Shown here: positions 430 to 37,462 of the stretch, in pieces
Numbering within the stretch: the stretch's first letter is position 1
Layout: every line of letters begins with the position of its first letter
Origin: Shigella phage CT02
Sequence record: OP917825
DNA: 38,876 nucleotides
Reading direction: 5' to 3' (one strand)
Made by a program: the position numbers and the translations under genes
The notes under the pieces: model-generated
Databases searched by the model: none
What the model was told of the DNA's origin: nothing
The model's input: only the letters and a program-made list of their open reading frames with translations

Positions 430-469
430 CAAAGAGGCCACGGACGGCCTCGATAATAAGGAGGGCACA

Positions 470-673
470 ATGTTGTCATTGGACTTTAATAATGAGTTAG
501 TCAAGGCCGCGCCGATTGTTGGTACGGGGGTAGCTGATGGTGCCGCCCGCCTATTCTTCGGGTTGAGTCTTAATGAGTGGTTCTACGTTGCAGCTATCGC
601 CTACACAGTGGTTCAGATTGGTGCCAAGGTAGTCGATAAGATGATTGACTGGAAACGTGCAAATAAGGAGTAA
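470..673 (+). CDS. Class II holin (gp17.5)
   Basis: 67-aa ORF with RBS AAGGAGG upstream; near-identical from memory to T7 gp17.5 (MLSLDFNNEL...); hydrophobic core. Confidence 0.85.
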   Translation: MLSLDFNNELVKAAPIVGTGVADGAARLFFGLSLNEWFYVAAIAYTVVQIGAKVVDKMIDWKRANKE

Positions 674-676
674 CCT

Positions 677-943
677 ATGAGTGACAAGACTTTAATCAAG
701 CTGCTGGAGATGCTAGACACTGAGATGGCACAGCGTATGCTTGCTGACCTCCAGAGTGAGGAACGCCGAACGCCGCAGCTTTACAACGCAATCGGCAAAC
801 TGTTAGACCGCCATAAGTTCCAAATCAGTAAGCTGACCCCGGATGAGAACATCCTCGGTGGACTGGCGGCTGGTCTGGAAGACTACAACAAAGTGGTCGG
901 CCCTAATGGTCTGACTGACGATGAGACCATCACGCTACAGTAA
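677..943 (+). CDS. Terminase small subunit (gp18)
   Basis: 88-aa ORF; strong recalled similarity to T7 gp18 (MSDKTLIKLLEMLDTEMAQRML...); RBS AAGGAG. Confidence 0.85.
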   Translation: MSDKTLIKLLEMLDTEMAQRMLADLQSEERRTPQLYNAIGKLLDRHKFQISKLTPDENILGGLAAGLEDYNKVVGPNGLTDDETITLQ

Positions 944-949
944 GTGACA

Positions 950-988
950 TACTCAAGGTTCTCCACGCGGGGAGCCTTTATGGATGTT
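950..988 (+). promoter_or_regulatory. RNase III-type processing hairpin (R18.5-like)
   Basis: Member of a 6-copy family with conserved flanks ACTCAAGG...CCTTTATGRAT around an imperfect GC-rich stem. Confidence 0.4.
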
Positions 989-1029
989 ATTTGGTGCATC
1001 TATGTGAAATCTGAAAATTGATGGGAGGT

Positions 1030-1485
1030 GTTATGCTAAAACTTTTACGCAGCGCACTCCCTTGGGTACTCGCCGGGACACTCTTTATGGGTGGCTGGCA
1101 CTTAGGGTCAACCCATGAGAGAGCGAACTGGAAGGAGGTAATCCAAAATGAATACATTGCGAAAACAAAAGCAACCGCAGCAACTCAGGCAGAGGTCAGT
1201 CGGGTATCCCGTGAGTACCAAGAAGAGATTGCAGCCATTGAAGGCAGCACTGATAGGATGCTTAATGACCTGCGTAGTAATAATAAGCGGCTGTCAGTCC
1301 GCATCAAAACCCTTACCGGACTACCAGAAGATAACGGTAGATTCGAGTTTAATGGTCGAGCCGAACTACACGAGTCAGATGCTAAGCGTATTATCGGAAT
1401 AACCCAAGCTGCTGATGCTCACGTAAGAGCGCTCCAGCGTACTATTAAGGAGATGCAGAATGAGCGACACCCAAGCAAACCGTAA
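1030..1485 (+). CDS. i-spanin, Rz-like (gp18.5)
   Basis: ORF 1018..1485; preferred start ATG 1030 directly after RBS GGAGGTG (1021-1027); N-terminal TM segment; resembles T7 gp18.5. Confidence 0.75.
1148..1402 (+). CDS. o-spanin, Rz1-like lipoprotein (gp18.7), embedded in gene 18.5 in the +1 frame
   Basis: 84-aa ORF fully inside 18.5; lipobox-like IISGC; RBS AAGGAGG upstream; resembles T7 gp18.7. Confidence 0.7.
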   Translation: MNTLRKQKQPQQLRQRSVGYPVSTKKRLQPLKAALIGCLMTCVVIISGCQSASKPLPDYQKITVDSSLMVEPNYTSQMLSVLSE

Positions 1486-3223
1486 TGCGCTAATCATTGC
1501 GCAGCTTAAGGGTGACTTCGTGGCCTTCCTGTTTGTATTGTGGAAGGCTTTGGCTCTCCCGCCGCCGACTAAGTGTCAGATTGATATGGCCCGGTGTCTG
1601 GCTAACGGAGACAACAAGAAGTTTATCCTACAGGCTTTCCGTGGTATCGGTAAGTCATTCATCACCTGTGCGTTCGTTGTGTGGACGTTATGGCGTGACC
1701 CTCAGTTGAAGATACTGATCGTCTCTGCATCCAAAGAACGTGCGGACGCTAACTCCATCTTCATCAAGAACATCATTGACCTGCTGCCCTTCTTGGCTGA
1801 GCTAAAGCCTCGCCCCGGTCAGCGCGACTCTGTGATTAGTTTCGATGTTGGCCCTGCCAAGCCTGACCACTCTCCGTCTGTGAAGTCGGTGGGTATCACT
1901 GGTCAGTTGACTGGTAGCCGTGCTGATATCATCATAGCGGATGACGTTGAGATTCCGTCTAACTCCGCAACTCAAGGTGCCCGTGAGAAGCTGTGGACTC
2001 TGGTGCAGGAATTTGCTGCGCTTCTGAAACCACTGCCGACTTCTCGCGTTATCTACCTTGGCACGCCTCAAACCGAAATGACCTTGTACAAGGAACTCGA
2101 AGATAACCGTGGGTACACCACAATCATCTGGCCTGCGCTCTATCCACGTAGCCGTGAGGAAGACTTGTACTATGGCGACCGTCTGGCCCCGATGCTCCGC
2201 GAAGAGTTCAACGATGGGTTCGAGATGCTCCAAGGTCAACCGACTGACCCCGTGCGCTTCGATATGGAAGACCTGCGTGAGCGTGAGTTGGAATACGGTA
2301 AGGCTGGCTTCACTTTGCAGTTCATGCTAAACCCGAACCTGAGTGATGCCGAGAAGTACCCCTTACGCCTCCGTGACGCTATCGTGTGCGGTCTGGACTT
2401 CGAGAAAGCCCCAATGCATTACCAGTGGCTTCCGAACCGTCAGAATCGCAATGAAGAGCTTCCTAACGTGGGACTTAAGGGTGATGATATTCATAGCTAT
2501 CATTCGTGCAGCCAGAACACTGGACAGTACCAGCAACGCATCCTCGTGATTGACCCTAGTGGTCGAGGTAAGGATGAGACTGGTTACGCAGTGTTGTTCA
2601 CCCTGAATGGCTACATCTATCTGATGGAAGCTGGCGGGTTCCGCGATGGTTATTCCGATAAGACCCTTGAGTCCCTCGCTAAGAAAGCGAAGCAGTGGAA
2701 GGTTCAGACAGTGGTCTTCGAGAGTAACTTCGGGGATGGTATGTTTGGTAAGGTATTCAGCCCTGTGCTCCTGAAACACCATGCAGCGCAACTTGAAGAG
2801 ATTCGTGCTCGTGGTATGAAGGAACTACGCATTTGTGATACGCTGGAGCCTGTACTCTCTACGCACCGCCTTGTGATTCGTGACGAGGTGATTCGTGAGG
2901 ACTACCAGACTGCCCGTGACGCTGATGGCAAGCATGACGTTCGCTATTCACTGTTCTACCAGTTGACCCGTATGGCTCGTGAGAAGGGCGCTGTGGCCCA
3001 TGACGACCGACTTGATGCATTAGCATTGGGTGTAGAGTTCTTACGCTCTACGATGGAACTGGACGCCGTGAAGGTGGAAGCTGAGGTGCTTGAGGCGTTC
3101 TTAGAGGAACACATGGAGCACCCAATCCATTCGGCTGGTCATGTAGTTACCTCTATGGTTGACGGTATGGAACTCTATTGGGAGGATGACGATGTGAATA
3201 GCAACAGGTTCATTGACTGGTAG
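1460..3223 (+). CDS. Terminase large subunit (gp19)
   Basis: 587-aa ORF; length and sequence consistent with T7/T3 gp19; RBS AAGGAG. Confidence 0.9.
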
Positions 3224-3303
3224 TTATGCATATTGAGTGCATAAGGAATCATTGAGACCACGGATGGTCACTTTAAGAAACTCCTTAAGAATCAATGAGT
3301 TTG

Positions 3304-3326
3304 CATTAACCCTCACTAAAGGGAGA
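3304..3326 (+). promoter_or_regulatory. T3-class phage RNAP promoter (phiOR position)
   Basis: CATTAACCCTCACTAAAGGGAGA matches the T3 promoter consensus; lies between genes 19 and 19.5. Confidence 0.7.
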
Positions 3327-3467
3327 GAGGGGACTTAAAGCTACTATATAGGTTAGTCATTCAGATTATGCAATGACCCTTTATGCACTTTAAGTCTACC
3401 TCTATGATTGGTGATATTATCATTGTATAATCACCCTACCTTAGAGCAACTGAAAGGAGGTGGCTCA

Positions 3468-3617
3468 ATGTTACGCTTGCTGATTGCCCTGCTGCGTCAT
3501 AGAGTCACTTGGCGATTTCTTCTGGTACTTACTGCTACCCTTGGGTACGCAGGTCTTACTGACCACCTCGGTCAACTGGAAGTGGCCTTTTGCTCTATAC
3601 TCTCTTGTGGGGATTAA
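3468..3617 (+). CDS. gp19.5-like small protein
   Basis: Internal ATG of ORF 3408..3617 preceded by RBS GGAGG; product MLRLLIALLRHRVTWRFL... resembles T7 gp19.5 (49 aa). Confidence 0.6.
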   Translation: MLRLLIALLRHRVTWRFLLVLTATLGYAGLTDHLGQLEVAFCSILSCGD

Positions 3618-3874
3618 ATTATTGTTGATGACCGACAAGCGGCTCTGAGGGATTCGTAGGTATAGTTTCACTACACCAACTCATCCCTGTAGAGTCAACC
3701 CTAAAGGTTATACCTAAAGATGCCCTGTAGTTCGTAATGGTCTTACAGGGTCTTCTGGTGTCTCCTAGATATCCCTTCGGGATGCGCCTGTGGTCTCACC
3801 TATGGTGTGGCCTTACCTAAAGTGGTTGCCTAAAGAGACCCTTTAAGAATTTACCACAAAAATCTGAATGGGTA

Positions 3875-4105
3875 TCTCACAGTTCAAGAACCCAAAGTAC
3901 CCCCATAGCCCTCCTAAAGCCACCTAAAGCCAGCCCTACCCCTCTGGTTTAACCTTCGGTTAACCTTGGGTATCTCCTCAAGTGGCCTATAGGATAGCCT
4001 AGAGTGTTGCCTAAAGTCAATACCTAAAGAGGTGGATGGCTTAAAGAGGCCTTAAAGAGTGTCCTAGTGTACCAGTTCGATAGTACATCTCTATGTGTCC
4101 CTATC
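3875..4105 (+). other. Inferred genome left end and terminal repeat (concatemer junction); exact repeat length not determinable from a single copy
   Basis: TCTCACAGTTCAAGAACCCAAAGTACCCCCATAG at 3875 resembles the T7/T3 genome left-end sequence; followed by CCTAAAG repeats and the phiOL promoter, as at the T7 left end. Confidence 0.4.
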
Positions 4106-4116
4106 TGTTAGTCATT

Positions 4117-4199
4117 CCTAAAGTAAACCTAAAGCCACTACCTAAAGACCAGACCTAAAGCCACCACCTAAAGACCAGACCTAAAGCCACCACCTAAAG
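4117..4199 (+). repeat. CCTAAAG heptamer array including a perfect 26-bp tandem duplication (4141..4166 and 4167..4192)
   Basis: Direct reading: CCTAAAGACCAGACCTAAAGCCACCA occurs twice in tandem; further CCTAAAG copies at 3700-3720, 3826-3845, 3905-3930, 4005-4060. Confidence 0.8.
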
Positions 4200-4287
4200 A
4201 GTGGAGCTATCTTAAAGACAACCAGACCGATAGACCCACTGTTAACCTGTAGTCTGTCCTGTAGTTTCCTATAACATCCAACGTTGT

Positions 4288-4310
4288 CTATTACCCTCAC
4301 TAAAGGGAAT
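4288..4310 (+). promoter_or_regulatory. T3-class phage RNAP promoter (phiOL position)
   Basis: TATTACCCTCACTAAAGGGAAT, a one-base-shorter variant of the consensus, upstream of the early region. Confidence 0.55.
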
Positions 4311-4363
4311 GAGGGATACTTAAAGAGGGAATAAAAGATTTAATAAAAGATTTAAATTAATGG

Positions 4364-4393
4364 TTGACTTTGAGTAACCCTTAAGGCTATTAT
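4364..4393 (+). promoter_or_regulatory. Sigma70 early promoter (A1-like)
   Basis: -35 TTGACT (4364-4369), 18-bp spacer, -10 TATTAT (4388-4393); position matches T7 A1. Confidence 0.55.
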
Positions 4394-4492
4394 TCATCTC
4401 GTCAACGGGACAACGGCCTTAAAGCCACTCCCTGAGATACCGGAGTCAACCGGATAAGTAGACAGCCTGATAAGTCATACGAAAAACAGGCA

Positions 4493-4522
4493 TTGACAAC
4501 ATGAAGTAACATGCAGTAAGAT
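4493..4522 (+). promoter_or_regulatory. Sigma70 early promoter (A2-like)
   Basis: -35 TTGACA, 18-bp spacer ACATGAAGTAACATGCAG, -10 TAAGAT; near-identical to recalled T7 A2. Confidence 0.7.
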
Positions 4523-4600
4523 GCACAGCGTCAACCGGACGGATACGGTGTCTTCTAGGTGACTTAAGCGCACCACGGCACATAAAGCGAGACAAAATGG

Positions 4601-4629
4601 TTGACAACATGAAGTAAGCACGGTACGAT
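4601..4629 (+). promoter_or_regulatory. Sigma70 early promoter (A3-like)
   Basis: -35 TTGACA, 17-bp spacer, -10 TACGAT; near-identical to recalled T7 A3. Confidence 0.7.
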
Positions 4630-4841
4630 GTGCCACATGAAAGACACCGAGTGTCGTAGGTGTAAAAACGCGACATAGTGGATAGATGGCGAAAGCACAA
4701 GCGACCACGATAATAAAGAGCTTGTCGCACTTATAACGCAAGTGACGGCTAACACTGAAATAGCCTCGGCTCGACGAAACTGTAGCCTAAAGTTCTTTAA
4801 CAATCTGGATAATAGCTCTTGAGTGTACCGTATAAGCGAAT

Positions 4842-4913: not shown

Positions 4914-5372
4914 ATGATTTTCACTAAAGAGCCTGTCAACGTCTTCTATGTACTGGTGTCAGCATTCCGTTCTAACCTTGATGATGAGGTGAACATGAGC
5001 CGCCACCGCCACATGGTGAGCGAATTACGTGCCGCACCGGGTATCTACGGCGAGCTTGAGTCTACCGATTTGACCGGGTGCTATCGTGAGAGTATCGCAC
5101 TGGCTCCAACCGAGGAAAAGACCATGCGTGTACTCTGCAAGAACAAAGAGCAGGCACTACAGGTAGCTCGCTTAGCTTGCAATGAGTATGAGCAAGATTG
5201 CGTACTGGTATACAAATCACAGACTCACACAGCGGGATTGGTGTACGCTAAAGGTATCGACGGGTATAAGGCTGAACGTCTGCCGGGTAGCTTCCAAGAG
5301 GTTCCCAAAAGCGCACCGCTTCAAGGCTGCTTCACGATTGATGAGTTCGGACGCCGCTGGCAGGTGGCCTAA
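4914..5372 (+). CDS. S-adenosylmethionine-degrading enzyme (T3 gp0.3-type SAMase), anti-restriction
   Basis: 152-aa ORF; sequence and length match recalled T3 gp0.3; RBS GAGGT; first gene after the early promoters. Confidence 0.85.
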   Translation: MIFTKEPVNVFYVLVSAFRSNLDDEVNMSRHRHMVSELRAAPGIYGELESTDLTGCYRESIALAPTEEKTMRVLCKNKEQALQVARLACNEYEQDCVLVYKSQTHTAGLVYAKGIDGYKAERLPGSFQEVPKSAPLQGCFTIDEFGRRWQVA

Positions 5373-5373
5373 T

Positions 5374-5529
5374 ATGAATCGCTATTACATCAACGTACCG
5401 GGCTGGGGCGGGTCTCTGACCTGCTACGGATACAACGAACGGGACGCACGGAAACGCTTTAGAGAACAACACGGCTTCGGAAGGCTTCCTAATGGGACGC
5501 GCCTATGGCTGGACGCCCGTGATTGGTAA
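5374..5529 (+). CDS. Small early protein, unknown function (51 aa)
   Basis: Internal ATG of ORF 5182..5529 placed right after the 0.3 stop; the longer version would overlap 0.3 out of frame. Weak RBS. Confidence 0.4.
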   Translation: MNRYYINVPGWGGSLTCYGYNERDARKRFREQHGFGRLPNGTRLWLDARDW

Positions 5530-5534
5530 GTGTT

Positions 5535-5572
5535 AAACTCAAGGTCGCACCGAGTGTGTGGCCTTTATGATT
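5535..5572 (+). promoter_or_regulatory. RNase III-type processing hairpin
   Basis: AACTCAAGGTCGCACCGAGTGTGTGGCCTTTATGAT; conserved flank family. Confidence 0.55.
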
Positions 5573-5593
5573 ATCACTTATAGGACTAACACC

Positions 5594-5794
5594 ATGAGTA
5601 AACTACTGGCAACATCTAAAATAGAAGGCCAATGCACTGTAACACTGCGTGAGTATTACCACGGGTCAATGGGAAGCACCTACGTTGTGCGATACGGTAA
5701 ACAGGTCACACATTGGGTAAACCCGATTTTAGCACAAGAGGATTATCAAGCCTGTGTGATACACCAAGCAACATGTGCGGGCTGGAATGATTGA
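5594..5794 (+). CDS. Small early protein, unknown function (66 aa)
   Basis: ATG 5594 is the first start downstream of the RNase III hairpin; the ORF-track start 5558 lies inside the hairpin. Confidence 0.45.
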   Translation: MSKLLATSKIEGQCTVTLREYYHGSMGSTYVVRYGKQVTHWVNPILAQEDYQACVIHQATCAGWND

Positions 5795-5813
5795 CATTAC
5801 AGGAGGATTGGCA

Positions 5814-5972
5814 ATGGTTATCTTTATCGCTGTCGCACTCTTTGCGGTCGCTGGCTGGTACTCTGAGTCACGCAAGGCCGCTCGCTATCATCACAAGATG
5901 GTTAAACTCATGGAACACTTGGACGCAGAAGGGCGAGGCCGCGAGGCTATCGAGCTGGTGAAACACGCATGA
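5814..5972 (+). CDS. Small early membrane protein, unknown function (52 aa)
   Basis: ATG 5814 preceded by RBS AGGAGG (5801-5806); N-terminal hydrophobic helix VIFIAVALFAVAGW. Confidence 0.45.
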   Translation: MVIFIAVALFAVAGWYSESRKAARYHHKMVKLMEHLDAEGRGREAIELVKHA

Positions 5973-6166
5973 TGATTCTCTTTATCGCACTGGTCTATCT
6001 GTGCATCGCAATGTACTTTATGCGAGACTTTAAGCGCGGTCTGGCAGTACACAAGGCAACGCTGAGTTACTTTAAGTGGGGATTCATCCCACGGTTTACG
6101 GTTCGTGAACGTAACGGACGCTTTAAGGCCAATAAGGTTGGTATCTTCTACATCGCAACTCACTGA
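5969..6166 (+). CDS. Small early membrane protein, unknown function (65 aa)
   Basis: ATGATG start overlaps the preceding stop; N-terminal hydrophobic helix ILFIALVYLCIAMYF. Confidence 0.45.
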   Translation: MMILFIALVYLCIAMYFMRDFKRGLAVHKATLSYFKWGFIPRFTVRERNGRFKANKVGIFYIATH

Positions 6167-6187: not shown

Positions 6188-7297
6188 ATGACTTTCACCG
6201 AAGCACAAGCCGCACTCGAAGCTATCCGCAACCTGCCGATTGAGCGCCTGAACGAACGCCAGCCCATGCTGGTGGCTCTTGCGGCTGCTATCGTGAACGA
6301 TGAGACTCAAGACGGCGAACTGACGCAGGCCAAGGGCAATTGGGGTCTGGAGTCTATGGACTACTGGCAGACACTGGCTGAGCGTATGCGTGATGTTGGA
6401 TTTGTACGCTTGGGTAACGGTCACTTTAGCGCAGCATATGAGCACGCATTGTTACCGGGCAAGGTCATCAAGGTAGGCTTTAAGAAAGAGGACTCAGGCG
6501 CAGCCTATGCAGCCTTCTGCCGTATGAACCAAGGCCGGGAAGGTATCCCTACGGTGTACGACATTCAGCGTCATGCTGGTTGTTACACGGTGGTTCTTGA
6601 TTATCTGAACCCGCTTAACGACTGGTGCTACGGTGAGAGTGACAAGGTGCGTCACCACTTCAAAGCCGCACGGGAAATCATTGAGGAGGATTGCTTCGAT
6701 ACCGCCGAAGAGTACCCAATAAGTGACGGGTTCATTGAGACCTGCAAGGATATCCGCAAGTTCTTCTTAGGCATCGCATCGTTCGATTGTCACAGCGGTA
6801 ACATGATGAAAGACCAGATGGGACGCCTGATTATCACAGACCCGGTATCATTCAGCGCAGACGACAAGTTAAAGCCGGGTGAGTTCCACTGTGACCCGGA
6901 TGAACTCATCGCTGAGATTGAGGCGCTGAGAGCGCAGGAAGCGATTGACCGCTGTAAGGCACGCAAGGCACGCCGTGACCCTAAAGGAGACTTTCAGGTA
7001 GCACGAAAGGCCCGTGCCAAATGGCGCAGAAAGGCCTCTAAGCGTGAAAAGCGCAACGCTAAGGTACTCGCTAAGATGCGCATGGATGCCAACGAGCAAC
7101 GCAGGGCCGAGCCTAGGGCACGTATGTTGTGGGGGGATAAGCACTGGCGCAACGCTTGGGTGCAGCACATGAATGTTGACTTCGCACGGCTCGAACTGTT
7201 AGCAGCCGCACAGATGGCACAGATAGACCACAAGGCTATCGTATGGGGCAAGCCGTTACACATAGACGCATACCTTGACAAGAGACTGCAAGGCTGA
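6188..7297 (+). CDS. Ser/Thr protein kinase with host-shutoff domain (gp0.7)
   Basis: 369-aa ORF; conserved block GNGHFSAAY...KVIKVGFKKEDSGAAYAAFCRM...QRHAGCYTVVLD matches recalled T7 gp0.7; basic Arg/Lys-rich C-terminus. Confidence 0.9.
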   Translation: MTFTEAQAALEAIRNLPIERLNERQPMLVALAAAIVNDETQDGELTQAKGNWGLESMDYWQTLAERMRDVGFVRLGNGHFSAAYEHALLPGKVIKVGFKKEDSGAAYAAFCRMNQGREGIPTVYDIQRHAGCYTVVLDYLNPLNDWCYGESDKVRHHFKAAREIIEEDCFDTAEEYPISDGFIETCKDIRKFFLGIASFDCHSGNMMKDQMGRLIITDPVSFSADDKLKPGEFHCDPDELIAEIEALRAQEAIDRCKARKARRDPKGDFQVARKARAKWRRKASKREKRNAKVLAKMRMDANEQRRAEPRARMLWGDKHWRNAWVQHMNVDFARLELLAAAQMAQIDHKAIVWGKPLHIDAYLDKRLQG

Positions 7298-7367: not shown

Positions 7368-10022
7368 ATGAACATCATCGAAACTATCGAAAAGAATGAC
7401 TTCTCTGAAATCGAACTGGCTGCTATCCCGTTCAACACGCTGGCAGACCACTACGGCAGCGCACTGGCTCGTGAACAACTGGCTTTAGAGCACGAGTCTT
7501 ATGAGTTAGGTGAGCGCCGCTTCCTCAAGATGCTGGAGCGTCAAGCGAAAGCTGGTGAGATTGCAGACAACGCAGCCGCTAAGCCGTTACTCGCTACGCT
7601 TCTCCCTAAGTTAACCGCACGTATCGTAGAGTGGCTCGAAGAGTACGCCTCGAAGAAAGGCCGCAAGCCTAGCGCATACGCACCGCTCCAGTTACTCAAG
7701 CCGGAAGCCTCCGCGTTTATCACCCTGAAAGTTATCCTTGCGTCACTGACCAGCACGAACATGACAACCATTCAGGCCGCTGCTGGTATGCTGGGGAAGG
7801 CCATTGAGGATGAGGCACGTTTCGGGCGCATCCGTGACCTCGAAGCGAAGCACTTCAAGAAGCACGTTGAGGAGCAGATTAACAAGCGCCACGGGCAAGT
7901 CTACAAGAAAGCCTTTATGCAGGTGGTCGAGGCTGATATGATTGGTCGAGGTCTGCTTGGTGGCGAGGCGTGGTCTAGCTGGGATAAAGAAACCACGATG
8001 CACGTAGGGATTCGCCTGATTGAAATGCTGATTGAATCCACGGGTCTGGTGGAACTACAGCGACACAATGCAGGTAACGCAGGCTCTGACCATGAGGCAC
8101 TGCAACTGGCCCAAGAGTACGTCGATGTATTAGCGAAGCGTGCAGGCGCTCTGGCGGGTATCTCTCCGATGTTCCAGCCGTGTGTCGTACCGCCGAAACC
8201 TTGGGTAGCAATCACCGGGGGCGGCTATTGGGCTAACGGTCGCAGACCTTTGGCACTCGTTCGCACTCACTCTAAGAAGGGCTTGATGCGCTACGAAGAC
8301 GTTTACATGCCAGAAGTCTACAAGGCTGTGAACCTCGCGCAAAACACCGCATGGAAAATCAACAAGAAAGTTCTTGCGGTTGTCAATGAGATTGTGAACT
8401 GGAAGAACTGCCCGGTCGCAGACATTCCATCTCTGGAGCGCAAAGAGTTACCACCTAAGCCGGACGACATTGACACCAACGAGGCAGCACTCAAGGAGTG
8501 GAAGAAAGCCGCCGCTGGTATCTACCGCTTGGACAAGGCACGAGTGTCTCGCCGTATCAGCTTAGAGTTCATGCTGGAGCAGGCCAACAAGTTCGCAAGC
8601 AAGAAAGCAATCTGGTTCCCTTACAACATGGACTGGCGCGGTCGTGTGTACGCTGTGCCGATGTTCAACCCGCAAGGCAACGACATGACGAAAGGTCTGC
8701 TGACCCTCGCTAAAGGAAAACCAATCGGTGAGGAAGGTTTCTACTGGCTGAAAATCCACGGTGCGAACTGTGCGGGTGTCGATAAGGTTCCTTTCCCTGA
8801 GCGCATCGCGTTCATTGAGAAGCACGTAGACGACATTCTGGCTTGCGCTAAAGACCCTATCAATAACACTTGGTGGGCCGAGCAGGATTCACCCTTCTGT
8901 TTCCTCGCGTTCTGCTTCGAGTATGCAGGCGTTGCGCACCACGGTATGAGCTACAATTGCTCTCTGCCGCTGGCGTTCGACGGGTCTTGCTCCGGTATCC
9001 AGCACTTCTCCGCGATGCTCCGCGATGAGGTAGGCGGTCGCGCGGTTAACCTACTGCCAAGCGAAACCGTGCAGGACATTTACGGCATCGTTGCACAGAA
9101 AGTAAACGAGATTCTCAAACAGGATGCAATCAACGGCACACCTAACGAGATGATTACCGTGACCGATAAGGACACCGGGGAAATCTCTGAGAAGCTCAAG
9201 CTGGGAACCTCAACGCTGGCGCAACAGTGGCTGGCATACGGTGTCACCCGTAGCGTAACTAAACGTTCGGTCATGACGCTGGCTTACGGTTCTAAGGAGT
9301 TCGGCTTTCGTCAACAGGTACTGGACGACACCATTCAGCCTGCGATTGACAGCGGTAAGGGCTTGATGTTCACCCAACCTAACCAAGCGGCTGGCTATAT
9401 GGCTAAGCTGATTTGGGACGCGGTGAGCGTGACCGTAGTCGCAGCGGTTGAGGCGATGAACTGGCTCAAGTCTGCCGCTAAGCTGCTGGCTGCTGAGGTC
9501 AAGGACAAGAAAACCAAGGATATTCTGCGCCACCGTTGCGCGGTTCACTGGACTACGCCGGACGGCTTCCCGGTCTGGCAGGAATACCGCAAGCCACTCC
9601 AGAAGCGTCTCGATATGATTTTCTTAGGGCAATTCCGTCTGCAACCGACGATTAATACCCTCAAGGATTCAGGCATTGACGCACACAAGCAGGAGTCTGG
9701 CATCGCTCCTAACTTTGTTCACTCACAGGATGGTAGCCACCTCCGCATGACAGTCGTTTATGCTCACGAGAAGTATGGCATTGAGTCCTTTGCGCTCATT
9801 CATGACAGCTTTGGGACTATCCCGGCAGACGCTGGTAAGCTCTTTAAGGCTGTGCGTGAAACGATGGTTCTCACCTACGAGAACAACGATGTGCTGGCAG
9901 ACTTCTATGACCAGTTTGCAGACCAGCTACACGAGACCCAACTGGACAAGATGCCTCCGCTTCCGAAGAAAGGAAATCTGAACCTGCAAGACATTCTCAA
10001 GTCTGACTTTGCCTTTGCATAA
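7368..10022 (+). CDS. Single-subunit DNA-dependent RNA polymerase (gene 1), T3 type
   Basis: ORF 7356..10022; start ATG 7368 (MNIIETIEKNDF...) after RBS GAGG; 884 aa; near-identical to recalled T3 RNAP, and the genome's promoters carry the T3 consensus. Confidence 0.95.
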   Translation: MNIIETIEKNDFSEIELAAIPFNTLADHYGSALAREQLALEHESYELGERRFLKMLERQAKAGEIADNAAAKPLLATLLPKLTARIVEWLEEYASKKGRKPSAYAPLQLLKPEASAFITLKVILASLTSTNMTTIQAAAGMLGKAIEDEARFGRIRDLEAKHFKKHVEEQINKRHGQVYKKAFMQVVEADMIGRGLLGGEAWSSWDKETTMHVGIRLIEMLIESTGLVELQRHNAGNAGSDHEALQLAQEYVDVLAKRAGALAGISPMFQPCVVPPKPWVAITGGGYWANGRRPLALVRTHSKKGLMRYEDVYMPEVYKAVNLAQNTAWKINKKVLAVVNEIVNWKNCPVADIPSLERKELPPKPDDIDTNEAALKEWKKAAAGIYRLDKARVSRRISLEFMLEQANKFASKKAIWFPYNMDWRGRVYAVPMFNPQGNDMTKGLLTLAKGKPIGEEGFYWLKIHGANCAGVDKVPFPERIAFIEKHVDDILACAKDPINNTWWAEQDSPFCFLAFCFEYAGVAHHGMSYNCSLPLAFDGSCSGIQHFSAMLRDEVGGRAVNLLPSETVQDIYGIVAQKVNEILKQDAINGTPNEMITVTDKDTGEISEKLKLGTSTLAQQWLAYGVTRSVTKRSVMTLAYGSKEFGFRQQVLDDTIQPAIDSGKGLMFTQPNQAAGYMAKLIWDAVSVTVVAAVEAMNWLKSAAKLLAAEVKDKKTKDILRHRCAVHWTTPDGFPVWQEYRKPLQKRLDMIFLGQFRLQPTINTLKDSGIDAHKQESGIAPNFVHSQDGSHLRMTVVYAHEKYGIESFALIHDSFGTIPADAGKLFKAVRETMVLTYENNDVLADFYDQFADQLHETQLDKMPPLPKKGNLNLQDILKSDFAFA

Positions 10023-10033
10023 CAAGCACTTAG

Positions 10034-10056
10034 CATTAACCCTCACTAACGGGAGA
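10034..10056 (+). promoter_or_regulatory. T3-class phage RNAP promoter (phi1.05)
   Basis: CATTAACCCTCACTAACGGGAGA; transcript start is followed by a perfect hairpin GGGAGAC-TACTTAAG-GTCTCCC (10051-10072). Confidence 0.7.
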
Positions 10057-10108: not shown

Positions 10109-10381
10109 ATGATTAACATTAAGACTTTCTTTAAGAACATCTTTAAGTTAAACCGCTTGACTTCCGTTAAGTTCTACGCTTGGATGCCCGGTAGTGATGA
10201 CCTCCGCAAGACTGAATTTAAGTTAGGCTTAGGGCCGTGCGGTAAGGTGGTCACGAAGTTGGAATGTTACTCAACGGCCTCCGGGATGGTCATCTTCCAG
10301 ACTACTGAGGACAACGAAACGAAATCCTTCTACTACCCGAAAGGTTCAACGTGTGGTCGTATCGAACGGACATGTAGTTAA
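10109..10381 (+). CDS. Hypothetical protein (1.05 position), 90 aa
   Basis: ORF bracketed by two phage promoters; AT-rich relative to neighbours; weak RBS; stop overlaps the next promoter. Confidence 0.45.
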   Translation: MINIKTFFKNIFKLNRLTSVKFYAWMPGSDDLRKTEFKLGLGPCGKVVTKLECYSTASGMVIFQTTEDNETKSFYYPKGSTCGRIERTCS

Positions 10382-10398
10382 CCCTCACTAACGGGAGA
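10376..10398 (+). promoter_or_regulatory. T3-class phage RNAP promoter (phi1.1)
   Basis: AGTTAACCCTCACTAACGGGAGA. Confidence 0.7.
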
Positions 10399-10614: not shown

Positions 10615-10889
10615 TGATGGGACGTCTCTATAGCGGCAACCTGAACGATTACAAAGATGCGGTAGCGCGTCTACAGGAAGACCATGACGTGACCGTGAAG
10701 ATGGAGTCATTCAGCTATGAAAACCCAGCGAAGATGTGCAGGTCATCCGGTGAGGTTCTCCGTGTGTTCACACGCTCCGGGCATCTGGTGGCATCCAGAA
10801 CCTTCGAGCACAGCGACAGCGATGTACAAATCAACGCGCAGACTGCATGGCTCCGCAAGGTTCACAGCGATTTGAAACACTGGAAGTAA
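10614..10889 (+). CDS. gp1.2-like protein (host dGTPase inhibitor family)
   Basis: ORF 10605..10889; preferred start ATG 10614 (MMGRLYSGNL...) overlapping the 1.1 stop; C-terminus ...DLKHWK resembles T7 gp1.2. Confidence 0.65.
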   Translation: MMGRLYSGNLNDYKDAVARLQEDHDVTVKMESFSYENPAKMCRSSGEVLRVFTRSGHLVASRTFEHSDSDVQINAQTAWLRKVHSDLKHWK

Positions 10890-10909
10890 TAACCCTCACT
10901 AACAGGAGA
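10887..10909 (+). promoter_or_regulatory. T3-class phage RNAP promoter (phi1.3)
   Basis: AATAACCCTCACTAACAGGAGAA; its +1 region supplies the AGGAG RBS of the next ORF. Confidence 0.7.
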
Positions 10910-10915
10910 AACGAA

Positions 10916-11332
10916 ATGAGAAACATCGAACGGTTCAACGCAAAGACTGAACCTTGCGGTGACTGTCTACGTTGGACTGGTCGAATCCAGCCTAACGGTT
11001 ACGGACAGTTTCGCCTCGAAGGTAAAACACAATACGCACATCGAGCAGCTTACAAGCTGTTTATCGGTGAACTGGACAATAAAGATACAGTCCTTCACTC
11101 GTGCGACAACAGGTGGTGTGTGAACCCTGAGCATTTGACCAAGGGAACGCAGGCCGATAACCTGAAAGACATGGCGATAAAGGGTAGACACCACGCCATT
11201 AAGATTCCGAACGATGCCATTGAGGGCATCCGCAAAGACCCTCGCTCTTCCACTGCGATAGCGGCTGAGTGGGGAGTCCACCCAACAACCATCCAGAAGA
11301 TTAAGCGAAATATCAACAGGAGATTCGTATGA
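10916..11332 (+). CDS. HNH endonuclease (homing-endonuclease-like), 138 aa
   Basis: Motif HSCDNRWCVNPEHLTKGTQADN (HNH with conserved His/Asn) plus upstream CGDC; start ATG 10916 after AGGAG; ORF-track start 10847 overlaps gene 1.2. Confidence 0.75.
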   Translation: MRNIERFNAKTEPCGDCLRWTGRIQPNGYGQFRLEGKTQYAHRAAYKLFIGELDNKDTVLHSCDNRWCVNPEHLTKGTQADNLKDMAIKGRHHAIKIPNDAIEGIRKDPRSSTAIAAEWGVHPTTIQKIKRNINRRFV

Positions 11333-12345
11333 ACATTTTCAAGACCGCGCCATATAAAGCTGTATCCTTTGTCGAGTCTGCCGTGCGTAAAGCTCTGGAG
11401 ACTTCCGGCTACCTGATAGCTGATTGTAAATATGACGGTGTTCGTGGAAACATTGTGGTTGACAACGTGGCGGAAGCAGCGTGGCTGTCTCGCGTCTCCA
11501 AGTTCATCCCGGCGCTGGAACACCTGAACGGTTTCGATAAGCGCTGGCAGCAACTACTGAACGATGACCGCTGCATCTTCCCGGACGGCTTCATGCTGGA
11601 TGGTGAACTGATGGTCAAAGGCGTAGACTTCAACACAGGGTCTGGCCTGCTGCGTACCAAGTGGCTCAAGAAGAACAACTTCATGTTTGACCGTGGTGGT
11701 GTTGAGCCGCTGAAAGGTTCCAAAGTAGCATTTGAGTTAGACCCCAAGCGCCTGAGCGTGCGCCTGTATGCTGTCATGCCGATTCACATTGCGGAGTCTG
11801 GCGAGGACTACGATGTACAGAACCTGCTGATGCCGTATCATGTGGAAGCCATGCGCTCTCTTCTGGTTGAATACTTCCCGGAAATCGAGTGGCTTATCGC
11901 TGAGACCTACGAGGTCTACGATATGGATTCGCTGACTGAACTGTACGAAGAGAAGCGTGCCGAAGGTCACGAGGGTCTCATTGTGAAAGACCCACAAGGT
12001 ATCTACAAGCGAGGCAAGAAGTCTGGCTGGTGGAAGCTCAAGCCTGAGTGTGAAGCCGACGGTATCATTCAGGGTGTCAATTGGGGAACCGAAGGTTTAG
12101 CCAACGAGGGTAAAGTGATAGGCTTTAGTGTGCTTCTTGAGACTGGTCGTTTAGTAGACGCCAACAACATCTCTCGCGCACTGATGGACGAGTTCACAGC
12201 CAACGTTAAAGCCCACGGTGAAGACTTCTACAACGGGTGGGCCTGTCAGGTCAACTATATGGAAGAGACCCCGGACGGCTCCCTGCGTCACCCTAGCTTC
12301 GAGAAGTTCCGAGGCACTGAGGACAACCCTCGAGAGAAAATGTAA
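11329..12345 (+). CDS. ATP-dependent DNA ligase (gene 1.3)
   Basis: 338-aa ORF; adenylation motif KYDGVRG; extensive similarity to recalled T7 ligase; start overlaps the HNH stop (ATGA). Confidence 0.9.
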   Translation: MNIFKTAPYKAVSFVESAVRKALETSGYLIADCKYDGVRGNIVVDNVAEAAWLSRVSKFIPALEHLNGFDKRWQQLLNDDRCIFPDGFMLDGELMVKGVDFNTGSGLLRTKWLKKNNFMFDRGGVEPLKGSKVAFELDPKRLSVRLYAVMPIHIAESGEDYDVQNLLMPYHVEAMRSLLVEYFPEIEWLIAETYEVYDMDSLTELYEEKRAEGHEGLIVKDPQGIYKRGKKSGWWKLKPECEADGIIQGVNWGTEGLANEGKVIGFSVLLETGRLVDANNISRALMDEFTANVKAHGEDFYNGWACQVNYMEETPDGSLRHPSFEKFRGTEDNPREKM

Positions 12346-12393
12346 CCAACTCACTGGCTCACCTTAACGGGTGGGCCTTTCTTCGTTCAGAGG

Positions 12394-13680: not shown

Positions 13681-14379
13681 ATGGCTGGTTTCAAGAAGAA
13701 AATCTACACCTCTGGTCTTGGTACTGCTGAGCCTTATGCTTACCTGAGTAAGCCGGATTACGGCAACGAAGAGCGTGGCTTCGGCAACCCTCGTGGTATC
13801 TATAAGGTAGACCTGACTCTTTCCAATAAAGACCCGCGCTGTCAGGCAATGGTCGATGAAATCGTGAAGACTCACGAAGAGGCTTATGCTGCTGCCGTGG
13901 AAGAGTTCGAAGCTAACCCGCCTCAGGCACAGCGTGGTAAGAAACCGCTGAAACCTTACGAGGGCGACATGCCGTTCTTCGATAACGGTGACGGTACGAC
14001 TACCTTCAAGTTCAAATGCTATGCGTCTTTCCAAGACAAGAAGACCAAAGAGACCAAACACATTAATCTGGTCGTTGTCGATAGCAAGGGCAAGAAGATT
14101 CAGGACGTTCCGATTATCGGCGGCGGCTCTAAGCTGAAAGTGAAATACTCTCTGGTGCCTTACAAGTGGAACACCGCTGTGGGCGCAAGCGTCAAGCTGC
14201 AACTGGAGTCCGTGATGCTGGTCGAACTGGCTACCTTCGGTGGTGGTGGTGACGATGAGTGGGCCGATGAAGTCGAAGATGGTGGTTACACTGCGAGTGA
14301 ATCCCGTCAGTCCCGCGATGAGCAGGAGTGGCAGGAAGACGAGCACGAAGAAACCCCGGATGATGACGAGGATTTTTAA
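13681..14379 (+). CDS. Single-stranded DNA-binding protein (gp2.5)
   Basis: 232-aa ORF, same length as T7 gp2.5; acidic C-terminal tail ending DDDEDF; RBS AAGGAGA. Confidence 0.9.
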   Translation: MAGFKKKIYTSGLGTAEPYAYLSKPDYGNEERGFGNPRGIYKVDLTLSNKDPRCQAMVDEIVKTHEEAYAAAVEEFEANPPQAQRGKKPLKPYEGDMPFFDNGDGTTTFKFKCYASFQDKKTKETKHINLVVVDSKGKKIQDVPIIGGGSKLKVKYSLVPYKWNTAVGASVKLQLESVMLVELATFGGGGDDEWADEVEDGGYTASESRQSRDEQEWQEDEHEETPDDDEDF

Positions 14380-14856
14380 ATGGAACTTAAAGAGAAACTA
14401 AAGGCTTACAGCGAAGTTTCTCATAACGGGTGCTGGGAGTGGCAACGCTACCGGATGCCCTGTGGTTACGGTAGGATTAGACACGGAGGCCGCATGGAAC
14501 TAACGCATCGTCTATCCTACCTAGCATTCAACGGGGATATACCTGAGGGTCTTGTTGTTCGCCATAAGTGTGACAACAAATGCTGCGTTAACCCTGAGCA
14601 CCTTACGCTAGGTACTCAAAAGGACAACGTTAAGGATGCAATAGACCGTGGTCAATTCGTCTACAGGGAGAACCCGAAAGGTGCAAAGCACCACATGGCT
14701 AAACTTAATGAGAAACAGGTTATGGAGGTTTACAACTCGACACAGACCCAAAGCAGCCTAGCAGAGACCTATGGTGTATCTCGACAATTAATCAGCGCGA
14801 TTAAGAGAGGTAAACTATGGCAGCACGTTACGCAGCACGTGGAGTTAAACGAGTAG
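14380..14856 (+). CDS. HNH endonuclease (homing-endonuclease-like), 158 aa; paralog of 10916..11332
   Basis: Motif HKCDNKCCVNPEHLTLGTQKDN; shares the YG.R..G....HR..Y and CDN..CVNPEHLT.GTQ.DN blocks with the first HNH ORF. Confidence 0.75.
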   Translation: MELKEKLKAYSEVSHNGCWEWQRYRMPCGYGRIRHGGRMELTHRLSYLAFNGDIPEGLVVRHKCDNKCCVNPEHLTLGTQKDNVKDAIDRGQFVYRENPKGAKHHMAKLNEKQVMEVYNSTQTQSSLAETYGVSRQLISAIKRGKLWQHVTQHVELNE

Positions 14857-15272
14857 GATCATATAGAAGCGGCTTAGAGCAGAAGAACATGGAGATGCTG
14901 GAACGTAAGGGAATCAAGGGACAGTATGAGATGTGGTCTATTCCCTATGTTATCCCTGCATCGAACCACAAGTACACACCAGACATAATCCTACCCAACG
15001 GAATCATTATTGAGACCAAGGGTCTATGGGACAGTGAAGACCGTAAGAAACACTTACTGATTCGTGAGCAGATGCCTGAGTTGGATATTCGTTTGGTATT
15101 CTCTTCGAGCCGCTCTAAGTTATACAAAGGGTCTCCAACCAGTTACGGTGAGTGGGCCGAAAAGCATGGTATTCTATTTGCTGACAAGCTGATTCCTGTG
15201 GAGTGGCTTAAAGAACCTAAGAAGGAGATACCGTGGGATAAACTAATTGCAAAGAAAGGAGTTAAGAAATAA
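14817..15272 (+). CDS. Endonuclease I, Holliday-junction resolvase (gene 3)
   Basis: 151-aa ORF; VPYVIPASNH.YTPD...ETKGLW...DRKKHLLIREQ.PELDIR.VFSSSR.KLYKGSPTSYGE matches recalled T7 gp3; RBS AGAGAGG. Confidence 0.9.
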   Translation: MAARYAARGVKRVGSYRSGLEQKNMEMLERKGIKGQYEMWSIPYVIPASNHKYTPDIILPNGIIIETKGLWDSEDRKKHLLIREQMPELDIRLVFSSSRSKLYKGSPTSYGEWAEKHGILFADKLIPVEWLKEPKKEIPWDKLIAKKGVKK

Positions 15273-15727
15273 TGGCCAAGGTACAATTCAAAACGCGCGC
15301 TTCTACGGAAGCAATCTTTGTTCACTGTAGTGCAACCAAGCCAAGCCAGAACATTGGCGTTCGTGAGATTCGTCAGTGGCACAAAGAGCAGGGCTGGTTA
15401 GACGTAGGATATCACTTCATCATCAAGCGTGATGGCACTGTGGAAGCAGGCCGCGATGAACTGGCTGTAGGTTCTCACGTGAAAGGTTACAACCACAACT
15501 CCGTAGGCGTATGCCTCGTGGGTGGGATTGATGATAAAGGCAAGTTCGACGCCAACTTTACACCTGCGCAAATGCAAGCGCTACGTAGTCTGCTGGTCAC
15601 GCTGCTGGCGAAGTATGAGGGTTCAGTCCTTCGTGCTCACCATGACGTTGCACCCAAAGCCTGCCCGTCCTTCGACTTGAAGCGCTGGTGGGAGAAGAAC
15701 GAACTGGTTACATCTGACCGAGGGTGA
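15272..15727 (+). CDS. Lysozyme / N-acetylmuramoyl-L-alanine amidase (gene 3.5)
   Basis: 151-aa ORF; strong similarity to recalled T7 lysozyme (MA.VQFK.R.STEAIFVHCSAT...). Confidence 0.9.
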   Translation: MAKVQFKTRASTEAIFVHCSATKPSQNIGVREIRQWHKEQGWLDVGYHFIIKRDGTVEAGRDELAVGSHVKGYNHNSVGVCLVGGIDDKGKFDANFTPAQMQALRSLLVTLLAKYEGSVLRAHHDVAPKACPSFDLKRWWEKNELVTSDRG

Positions 15728-20397: not shown

Positions 20398-20416
20398 TTC
20401 TATAGGAGAAATTATT

Positions 20417-36400: not shown

Positions 36401-37401
36401 TGCTCCTGAACGGAACATCAAACTACATTCTTGATGCTGCCCGTCAGGGTGTGCTTGGGGATGTGGCTGGAGCGGCCCTTGCTGGGAAAGCCTCTAAGTT
36501 CGGTAAGGCAAACTACCTTAAGTCTGCCTCTATCAGCCCTGAGCAGTGGAATGGAATCAAGCAGTTGTTCAGAGACCATGCGACTCGTGGAGAAGACGGT
36601 AAGTTCACCATTCGTGACAAACAGGCTTTCGCTAACGACCCACGTTCAATGGACTTGTGGCGACTGGCTGACAAGGTGGCGGATGAGACTATACTGCGCC
36701 CTCACAAGGTTTCCTCACAGGACGCCAAAGCGTTCGGTGCAGGGGTTAAGATGGTGATGCAGTTTAAGAACTTCGTCATCAAGTCCCTTAACTCCCGGTT
36801 CGTCCGTAGCTTCTATGAGGCAACGAAGAACAACCGTGCGTTAGACCAAGCGTTGACTCATATCATCTCTTTGGGTCTAGCTGGTGGTTACTACGTTGGG
36901 CAGGCGCACCTTAAGGCTGCAAGTCTACAGGAGCACAAACGTAAGGAGTACCTTAAGAACGCGCTTGACCCTAAGATGATTGCTCATGCGTCAATCTCTC
37001 GTAGTTCACACTTAGGATCACCATTGAGTATCTACGACATGTTCGCTGGGATGGTTGGTAGCGATACCTATAAGTACACCCGCTCTACTGTACTCCCTAA
37101 AGAGTCCGAGAAGCGCGACCCTAACAAGGCAGTGACAGGTAGACAGGTGGCTTCAACCATCGCAGGTGCAATTGGTGAGCAGGTTCCGGGTTTAGGTTTT
37201 GTGGGTTCTGTGGGCGCAACAGCAATTAACGCCGCTTCCCTACTGTCTTCTCCAAACAAGGCTACCGCTCTGGAGTTCCGTACAGGACTCTTCAACACCT
37301 CTCGTGAGTTGATTCCTAATGACCCGCTATCGCAGCAACTCATTATGAAAATCTACGAGGCCAACGGTATCCGTATAAAGGAGACGCCTAAGAAACAATA
37401 A
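33439..37401 (+). CDS. Internal virion protein gp16 with N-terminal lytic transglycosylase domain
   Basis: 1320-aa ORF; N-terminal SLT-like motif (LMQFTKGTA..., AYNQGEG); RBS AAGGAGG. Confidence 0.9.
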   Translation: MSYDKNKPSEFDGLFQKAADKHGVSYDLLRKLAFNESSFNPKAKSPTGPKGLMQFTKGTATALGLKVTDADDDDRYNPELAVDAAARHLSDLIRKYDGDELKAALAYNQGEGRNGAPQMQAYDKGDWASISEEGRNYMRNLMDVANSPRKGDLEAFGGITPKAKGIPSGDAFAGIGKKQTVGTDLPESTGFKVEGKEQKAPNVPYAKDFWEKTGTTLDEFNSRSAFFGIGDATSAELHNSVLGVAFRAARSDDGFDLFKDTITPTRWNSHTWTPEELERIRKEVKNPAYIHVVTGGSPENLDALIKMANDNYEMDARSADAGVGAKLTAGIVGAGVDPLSYVPLVGVAGKGLKVVNKAFIVGTQSAGLAVASEGIRTSIAGGEAHYADAALGGLMFGAGMSAISDAIAAGVRRSRGTEVVNDFAPMAHRLEARETAMNSGGEDLTRMPSENRVFDREHAGVEYSPLETEPGAVVLPQGQILSDTNPLNPQTLSEFEAVNPERAARGISLSGFTEIGLKTLRSENPTVRSIASDLVRSPTGMESGSNGKFGATASDIKERLHANNQRTYNQLYDAVRTAMKDPEFSTGGATMSRKEIRQEIYKRAALAIERPELQANLTKGERNVMNILKQHFDLKREIMENPSIFGNTKAVSIFPGSRHKGTYVPNVYDRAIKIEMVKRYGNDGLQRAIAESWLTSYRARPEVKARVDEYLMELNGLKSVQEVTPEMVQKHAMDKAYGISHTDQFSASSVIDDKLEGLTGIENNNFLEARNMFDSDMAVTLPDGNTFSVNDLRTYDMADILPAYDRRVDGDVAIMGGSGKTTKDLKDEIMALDKQAEGNGTLKGEVEALKDTVKILTGRARRNPEGAWGIALRSVNDLTFFAKNAYMGAQNLTEIAGMLAKGNVSAITHGIPVINDWVNRGKPLRASEIKEIHGMVFGKELDQLIRPGREDHVRRLRESTDTSAAVANVVGTIRFGTQELAARSPWTMLLNGTSNYILDAARQGVLGDVAGAALAGKASKFGKANYLKSASISPEQWNGIKQLFRDHATRGEDGKFTIRDKQAFANDPRSMDLWRLADKVADETILRPHKVSSQDAKAFGAGVKMVMQFKNFVIKSLNSRFVRSFYEATKNNRALDQALTHIISLGLAGGYYVGQAHLKAASLQEHKRKEYLKNALDPKMIAHASISRSSHLGSPLSIYDMFAGMVGSDTYKYTRSTVLPKESEKRDPNKAVTGRQVASTIAGAIGEQVPGLGFVGSVGATAINAASLLSSPNKATALEFRTGLFNTSRELIPNDPLSQQLIMKIYEANGIRIKETPKKQ

Positions 37402-37419
37402 ACCCTCACTAAAGGGAGA
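37397..37419 (+). promoter_or_regulatory. T3-class phage RNAP promoter (phi17)
   Basis: AATAAACCCTCACTAAAGGGAGA overlapping the gene 16 stop. Confidence 0.7.
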
Positions 37420-37462
37420 GAGGTCACATTCTGGCCTCTTCTCTCTTAATGCTAATTTACAA

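Follow-up and report, generated by a model that had tools for sequence, protein, structure and literature searches.

A probable freestanding HNH homing endonuclease gene at the start of the DNA ligase gene of Shigella phage CT02

What is a small HNH endonuclease gene doing between gene 1.2 and the DNA ligase gene (gene 1.3) of Shigella phage CT02, and how did it come to be there? The DNA considered here, which we call the window, is the whole 38,876-nucleotide (nt) sequence of record OP917825; positions refer to this window unless a T3 position is named, and the parts of the HNH locus described lie on its plus (+) strand. It is the genome of a T3-like (Teetrevirus) podophage and is about 95% identical to Serratia phage HMGUsm2, Enterobacter phage E-4, Escherichia phage ECA2 and others. 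The open reading frame (ORF) in question, at 10916..11332, encodes a protein of 138 amino acids (aa) with an N-terminal HNH_3 (His-Me finger) nuclease domain and a C-terminal helix-turn-helix (HTH). We consider it probable that this is a freestanding, that is, intron-less, HNH homing endonuclease that has the 5' end of the adjacent ligase gene as its target; that it cleaves, where exactly it does so, that carriers are immune and that the gene homes are things we infer from the evidence that follows.

An earlier note on this DNA, made from the sequence alone, had called the product an HNH protein; its profile matches, its motif and its predicted fold all place it in the HNH_3 family. The Pfam profile HNH_3 (PF13392) matches aa 40-82 with 36.2 bits against a gathering cut-off of 24.8 (E=4.5e-9), the zf-His_Me_endon profile scores just under its cut-off (26.8 against 27), and several 'HNH endonuclease' families of PHROG match as well, the best being PHROG 59 (E=6e-32). 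A search of the PDB sequences with the protein returned nothing significant. The predicted structure is confident, with a predicted local distance difference test score (pLDDT) of 89.5; it has a beta-beta-alpha-metal fold followed by a C-terminal HTH, and its best matches are I-HmuI, the closest, and I-PpoI. The nuclease core is at aa 14-86 (10955..11173), with the Cys/His ligands C17, C63, C68 and H73 (C14 is nearby), an A41-H42-R43 motif, a catalytic-type H61, and N70 and N82; aa 63-74 read CDNRWCVNPEHL. C17, Y29, G30, H42, H61, C63, C68, H73 and N82 are invariant in an alignment of 42 homologs, and N70, D64 and N65 are at least 90% conserved. Because these residues are conserved across the homologs, both the His-Asn-Asn catalytic pattern and the Cys/His cluster are intact; the individual roles, ligand or catalytic, are those that we take to apply from the general HNH/His-Me finger literature. 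The three-helix HTH, a DNA-binding module, occupies about aa 99-130 (11210..11305). Next to the invariant A41-H42-R43, Y40 is Tyr in all carriers except L010 and L055, one of which has Cys and the other His at this position; these could be weakened alleles.

The gene has a patchy distribution and sharp boundaries. Reference phage T3 lacks the ORF; the only features annotated in its 1.2-1.3 interval are the promoter phi1.3 and the RNase III site R1.3. Among the 222 phage records that match the 1.2-ligase region, 14 hold the ORF, a number that includes some GenBank/RefSeq duplicates; a nucleotide search for the gene gave 14 records with an identity of 94.7-99% and a further nine with 68-77%. The distance from the end of the promoter to the ligase ATG is 419 nt in 11 T3-like carriers versus 74-75 nt in 11 ORF-less T3-like relatives, and the junction sequences of these 11 + 11 genomes, mapped by gap-tolerant pairwise alignment and anchors, are uniform within each class. 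In a blastn comparison of the window with T3, homology ends at 10910 and restarts at 11326, and so about 415 nt replace a leader of about 70 nt: the cassette without a T3 counterpart is 10911..11325, and it stands in place of T3 6522-6591, the R1.3 leader. In the ORF-less phages, this leader folds into the 10-base-pair (bp) R1.3 hairpin; the carriers have lost it. As the alignments read, then, the locus in the T3-like carriers is a replacement and not a pure insertion. A cleaner junction is found in a more distant pair: in L066, a phage that has no gene 1.2 and carries a 55% homolog, the ORF is inserted exactly at the ligase ATG of the ORF-less counterpart L049; the two are identical at 115/120 positions upstream and at 68/90 positions in the ligase 5' end.

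These results bear on the earlier note, which had the gene invade an essential locus as freestanding homing endonucleases do. The freestanding homing endonuclease reading is supported both by the HNH profile and by the comparison with T3 and its relatives, and the expected sharp boundaries are there. In the T3-like carriers the R1.3 leader was replaced, so that this is no pure insertion, and a clean insertion is seen for L066 against L049. To call the locus essential was too strong, since T7 can do without its gene 1.3 ligase on hosts that are ligase-proficient; the important point is that the 5' end of the ligase gene is highly conserved at the DNA level.

The association of the gene with the ligase start is constant across genera. 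A tblastn search found 852 phage records with some HNH_3 relative, 23 of them at 64% identity or above, and in the phage database all 23 adjoin a ligase gene, in Teetrevirus, in Teseptimavirus (64795_ec1, Yanou, ESh1, Bas104 and WW2) and in Minipunavirus (phiA020). Homologs at 55% (L066) and 57% (L068) also adjoin the ligase gene, and a homolog of 40% identity sits at another place, close to a portal gene. Nine more metagenomic loci have the order gp1.2, HNH, ligase with a 4-nt overlap between the last two. Among the homologs with 55% identity or more, only phiA020 departs from this overlap, its two genes having a single base in common. The Teseptimavirus carriers keep their resident T7-type phi1.3, and GGGAGA or GGAGGA is followed by 4-7 nt and then the HNH ATG. 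Since this is the same arrangement as in the T3-like carriers, the edges of the cassette are promoter position +6 on the left and the ligase ATG on the right in both genera. GenBank annotations of the gene in relatives vary among 'HNH endonuclease', 'endonuclease' and 'hypothetical protein'.

The gene is also maintained. The 138-codon ORF is uninterrupted in 13/13 carriers tested, with no stops and no frameshifts, and the ratio of nonsynonymous to synonymous substitution rates (dN/dS) is 0.09-0.37 within the T3-like carriers and 0.11-0.13 between the T3-like and T7-like copies, at a dS of about 1.8. Judged by these rates, the gene is under purifying selection and is no decaying relic.

The evidence that points to the ligase gene as the target is a set of carrier-specific substitutions in its 5' end. 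From the codon table and the mismatch counts, the candidate homing-site region comprises ligase codons 5-17, which have the carrier, presumably immune, form in the window (11341..11379). Here, codon 7 is GCG versus AAC in the ORF-less phages, codon 9 is TAT versus TTC, and codons 12-15 are GTA TCC TTT GTC versus GTG TCA TTC GTA. ORF-less ligase genes keep TCW TTC GTA GAG TCT in 24/24 genomes of both genera (one has GTG), and all 13 carriers of the family at 73% identity or above have at least two changes in codons 13-15. Five carrier haplotypes of these three codons occur (TCC TTT GTC, TCC TTT GTT, TCC TTT GTA, GCA TTC GTT and ACC TTT GTT), and the changes are mostly synonymous, the exceptions being GCA (Ser13 to Ala) and ACC (Ser13 to Thr). 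Codon 7 is altered in 11/13 carriers, from AAC to GCG, AGC or ATC. In a blind check, six metagenomic carriers of this C-terminal type that had not been used before all fit the codon 13-15 rule (6/6), which brings the criterion to 19/19 carriers versus 0/24 ORF-less genomes; this would fit either immunity or a co-conversion tract. The converse search gave the same picture: all four matches to the carrier-type motif AARGCNGTNTCCTTTGTNGARTC in a ligase context in the IMG/VR and JGI metagenomes have an HNH gene directly upstream (4/4), and the remaining two matches are unrelated chance hits.

This footprint is short and lies on one side. Over ligase nt 1-50, divergence is 0.205 between the two groups versus 0.038 within the ORF-less genomes, and over nt 13-48 the carriers have 8-10 mismatches to the ORF-less consensus versus 0-5 (mean 0.8) in the ORF-less genomes. 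Linkage decays within about 150 nt, and at about nt 150-190 of the ligase gene the excess has faded. The distant pair L049 and L066 shows the same asymmetry between its upstream and ligase sides. In the left flank and more than about 250 nt into the ligase gene, between-group and within-group divergence are about equal, and so the flanks do not set the carriers apart as a lineage. Gene 1.2 and phi1.3, the left flank, showed no polymorphism linked to the HNH gene, a result that is uninformative about co-conversion there rather than negative because this region is nearly invariant in all of the genomes.

Two mosaic-like stretches were seen in the same part of the ligase gene. In the ORF-less Serratia phage SM9-3Y (L062), ligase nt 9-30 differ from the usual ORF-less form: codons 3-10 have the variant haplotype of the carriers L008 and L010 (T9, T12, T21, G24 and G30), and codons 13-15 are of the ORF-less type; this phage may be a former carrier or a recombinant. 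In the T3-like carriers ESh12 and mtp14 (L053 and L055), the tract by the HNH gene at about ligase nt 57-95 reads T7-type (KKALDNAGYLI), which looks like a mosaic from exchange between the genera.

The layout of the locus suggests how the gene could be expressed. Its ATG at 10916 and a stop that ends at 11332 give 138 codons plus stop; the ORF list has a longer frame, 10847..11332, and the ATG at 10916 was chosen because AGGAG precedes it and because GenBank annotators picked the equivalent start in relatives. To the left is gene 1.2 (10617..10889), a dGTPase inhibitor homolog (Pfam T7-like_gp12, E=5e-14) whose product is 95-97% identical to T3-like gp1.2 and whose last codons overlap the T3 RNA polymerase promoter phi1.3. 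This promoter, TAATAACCCTCACTAACAGGAGA at 10887..10909 (-17 to +6, predicted +1 at 10904), is the same 23-mer, without a difference, as the annotated T3 phi1.3 (T3 6498-6520), and is thus unchanged between the ORF-less arrangement and the window; the window contains 11 T3-type promoter matches versus 0 expected by chance. Six bases, AACGAA, separate phi1.3 +6 from the HNH ATG. The earlier note had the ORF start 7 nt after the promoter and end in an ATGA overlap with the ligase start (11329..11332), and both are borne out by the sequence and the ORF list. The initially transcribed bases of phi1.3, AGGAGA (10904..10909), are at Shine-Dalgarno distance (6-7 nt) from the ATG and are a putative ribosome-binding site for the HNH ORF. 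A second AGGAGA (11318..11323) lies within the final HNH codons, 5 nt upstream of the ligase ATG; every carrier of both genera has it, and it is a putative new ribosome-binding site for the ligase gene. To the right, the ATP-dependent DNA ligase gene, the proposed home gene, occupies 11329..12345 (Pfam DNA_ligase_A_M, E=2e-27; DNA_ligase_C, E=1.5e-38). A terminator-like hairpin (12356..12377) follows at the position of the early terminator (TE), which T3 annotates directly after the ligase gene; promoters phi1.05 (10034..10056) and phi1.1 (10376..10398) are both upstream of the HNH ORF. With the hairpin downstream and these promoters and phi1.3 upstream, the ORF lies inside the early unit of the host RNA polymerase and under three phage-polymerase promoters. 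Both the use of phi1.3 by the HNH gene and its translational coupling to the ligase gene would follow from this layout. A hairpin over the first HNH codons (10926..10984; -25.6 kcal/mol, z = -2.8) was considered as a possible stand-in for the RNase III site or as an attenuator of translation and was dropped, as nine diverged carriers gave no covariation support (term +0.62, with pairs broken in the distant copies).

Putting these observations together, we propose the following course of events. The HNH gene would be transcribed with the early genes, by the host RNA polymerase up to TE, and from phi1.05, phi1.1 and phi1.3, and would supply the ligase gene with a new ribosome-binding site within its own last codons. 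In the protein, the I-HmuI-like His-Me finger domain would be the nuclease and the C-terminal HTH would provide site recognition. When a carrier shares a cell with an ORF-less relative, the enzyme would nick or cut the conserved first 15-17 ligase codons of the latter, about 15-50 bp downstream of where the gene is inserted. Repair by recombination with the carrier genome would then copy the HNH gene and a short tract of the ligase 5' end into the cut genome and displace the R1.3 leader. The ligase allele of the carrier would escape by its cluster of mostly synonymous substitutions in this tract; alternatively, if the recognition site extends into the leader, absence of the leader might be protection enough.

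Several points weigh against this homing interpretation. A literature search found no paper that characterises this endonuclease and none in which cleavage, nicking or homing was shown for the protein or a close homolog. The substitutions in the ligase 5' end could be hitch-hiked donor sequence, that is, a co-conversion tract, and not immunity changes, and the target could equally be in the replaced R1.3 leader, the loss of which would by itself protect the carriers. The HNH protein is about as diverged between the genera as the ligase (74% versus 73% aa identity), and such similar divergence also fits long vertical residence with occasional loss. The counts given above and the Mann-Whitney P values ignore the relatedness of the genomes, and their independence is overstated. 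Some ORF-less alleles deviate from the ORF-less form, namely those of SM9-3Y (codons 3-10), L034 (one change) and L049 (two). Finally, the carriers of the Bas104-type variant enzyme described below are mixed, as three keep TTC GTA, with codons 13-15 unchanged, and two from metagenomes have TTT GTT. Because the latter two have the same C-terminal type, an enzyme-specific immunity signature for this variant is kept only as a possibility.

How the gene persists could also be explained in other ways. The same enzyme might be kept because it benefits the phage, either as an interference weapon directed at the ligase region of co-infecting relatives (marker exclusion) or by promoting recombination or amplification nearby, with its spread being a by-product. 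We consider this unlikely, while acknowledging that purifying selection over a deep divergence (dS about 1.8, dN/dS about 0.11) and stable residence at one locus in at least three genera speak for it, that the position of the gene in the early unit would have it expressed before replication, and that PMC11620839 and PMC13096335 report beneficial roles of phage homing endonucleases. The low prevalence in T3-like records, about 14/222, is unlike that of a generally advantageous gene. The mechanism, cleavage of the ORF-less allele, would be the same as in the interpretation that we prefer, and sequence data do not separate benefit from selfish drive.

A second explanation is that the gene is an ancestral, non-mobile accessory gene that was deleted in most lineages, so that the present pattern is the result of repeated loss and ordinary recombination. 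The similar divergence of the HNH gene and the ligase between genera would agree with this, and the identical junctions in the T3-like carriers fit a single origin. Against it, a homologous R1.3 leader is present in ORF-less T3-like and T7-like phages and is wholly missing from the carriers, and plain loss is disfavoured because deletion of the ORF would not recreate this shared leader. In addition, the carriers form no clade in the flanking sequence, and plain loss does not predict carrier-specific synonymous changes that are concentrated in the ligase 5' end. These considerations make plain loss distinctly improbable.

Least credible of the three is that the protein is catalytically dead or re-purposed as a DNA-binding protein, either a regulator of phi1.3 or of ligase expression or an HNH packaging cofactor as in cos phages: its HTH domain and the location of the gene directly on a promoter and in apparent control of the ligase ribosome-binding site would suit such a role, but all of the HNH motif residues are intact and invariant, the gene is not beside the terminase genes and the proteins that it matches best in structure are active homing endonucleases. 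Packaging in T7-like phages proceeds from concatemers with direct terminal repeats and has no known need for an HNH cofactor. Two further candidates were rejected. A terminase-associated HNH protein of the HK97 gp74 type does not agree with a gene in the early region between 1.2 and 1.3, and the permuted map, read by homology to T3, puts more than 10 kb between the HNH ORF and the terminase genes. An intron-encoded HNH protein of the I-HmuI or I-TslI type does not agree with an intergenic ORF and a ligase frame that runs without a break from its ATG; that there is no intron is judged from the intact state of the flanking ORFs and from the T3 alignment, no Rfam search having been made.

The proposed homing endonuclease can be compared with known systems. 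I-HmuI of Bacillus phage SPO1 (PDB 1U3E) has the same architecture of a nuclease followed by an HTH as the 138-aa protein. It differs in that it resides inside a group I intron, is a strand-specific nickase and has 174 aa, whereas the window protein is freestanding, is shorter and has the Cys/His cluster (C17, C63, C68 and H73). For intronless homing with marker exclusion, the models are MobE (HNH class) and SegF and SegG (GIY-YIG class) of T4-like phages, which, according to PMC2790892 and PMC2988022, cut the gene next door in the ORF-less allele, some way from where the element is inserted, and co-convert flanking markers. Like them, the window HNH gene is intergenic, is next to a conserved gene and is sporadic among relatives, and its footprint, a short carrier-specific tract on one side, matches their homing model. 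Unlike them, it is in a phage of the family Autographiviridae with the ligase 5' end as its home, and the element replaces an RNA-processing site and appears to take the first bases of a promoter as its ribosome-binding site.

HNH genes of the T7 group have been called homing or 'parasitic' genes (PMC11680406, PMC4925675, PMC8861465). For example, Sxt1, a T3 relative, has four 'homing HNH nuclease genes' that are absent from T3 and T7 (PMC11680406), the Citrobacter phages SH1 and SH2 differ in their HNH genes (PMC4925675), and a 397-bp HNH deletion segregates in Hafnia phage Ca (PMC8861465). These genes, which include gene 5.3 of T3 and phiYeO3-12, the T7 gene 3.8 and 5.3 types, and the extra genes of Sxt1, SH1 and Ca, belong to the same phage subfamily and display the same sporadic gain and loss, but they are at different loci and of different lineages.

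The window itself has a second freestanding gene of the HNH_3 plus HTH kind, HKCDNKCCVNPEHL (158 aa, 14380..14856), between gene 2.5 (13681..14379) and gene 3 (14817..15272). It starts right after the gene 2.5 stop and overlaps gene 3 at its end, and its product is 34% identical to that of the ORF at 10916 (E=1e-26) with the same two-domain architecture. Since the locus is a different one, its target is presumably different too. This gene is absent from T3, where the junction is at 9586-9663. Conversely, the T3 HNH gene 5.3 (T3 15168-15473) is missing from the window at 20398..20401 (T3 15158-15471), and thus the window and T3 each hold HNH genes that the other lacks.

The junction between phi1.3 and the ligase start is occupied by at least three endonuclease types in different phages: the HNH_3 plus HTH type of the window, a type with a swapped C-terminal half (Bas104, WW2 and ESh1) and an HNH-AP2 type (ChM-G5 and Sxt1). 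The second is found at the same site in L006, L071 and L072 (Bas104, WW2 and ESh1) and in L079 and L080; its nuclease half is kept (about 75% nt identity), its C-terminal DNA-binding half is replaced, and its carriers share another ligase N-terminus, MIINF-KTSPYKAV or KTSPHKAV. The third, an unrelated HNH enzyme of 151 aa with an AP2-like C-terminal part, is at the same promoter/ligase junction in Klebsiella phage ChM-G5 (L056, 2022..2477) and also in Sxt1/Sekstaphage-1 (OR545379), VSG32 and vB_Yep_9. There, the promoter reads TAATAACCCTCACTAAAGGGAGA, the ligase starts MMIFKTVPYK, and ligase codons 13-17 are unchanged and codons 5-10 altered. Annotated HNH genes also lie just past or overlapping the 3' end of the ligase gene in Patroon (L052, 3550..3849) and ViciousJeremy (L064, 3012..3485), and so the ligase gene has endonuclease landing sites on both sides. 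It is possible, if rather doubtful, that the phi1.3/ligase-start junction of the Studiervirinae is a contested landing pad at which at least three endonuclease lineages have settled in the identical site, each with its own substitution pattern in codons 5-17.

Two other differences between the window and T3 are recorded for completeness. The window is circularly permuted relative to T3, with window 435-4102 corresponding to T3 34532-38208 and window 3875-4646 to T3 1-729; the two T3 matches overlap at window 3875-4102, which corresponds to the 231-bp terminal repeat, present once. In addition, window 5365..5984, about 620 nt of the early region between 0.3-like and 0.6-like genes, does not align to T3 and contains small ORFs of 65-115 aa.

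In conclusion, what is new here is an uncharacterised HNH gene at the ligase start, and it is of a familiar kind; the element is otherwise of a textbook type, and several relatives already have it in GenBank under the name HNH endonuclease or endonuclease. It goes beyond the ordinary in three respects. The candidate target is about 40 bp long, its sensitive form being the ORF-less counterpart of 11341..11379, and alleles that would be sensitive and resistant appear to exist in nature; the R1.3 site was replaced and the first bases of phi1.3 reused as a putative ribosome-binding site; and endonucleases of at least three types have taken the same junction in different phages. When related phages share a cell, homing endonuclease genes are among the main causes of mosaicism and of markers being inherited unequally, and phage therapy and synthetic biology make heavy use of T3/T7-like phages; a probable attack on the ligase 5' end of ORF-less relatives matters for the design of phage cocktails and of engineered T7-family chassis. 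If the substitution patterns are true enzyme-specific immunity signatures, the locus would be a natural record of the co-evolution of target site and specificity, and it would offer a system for phage-phage interference in the T7 group, with the loss of the RNase III site R1.3 as a side effect.

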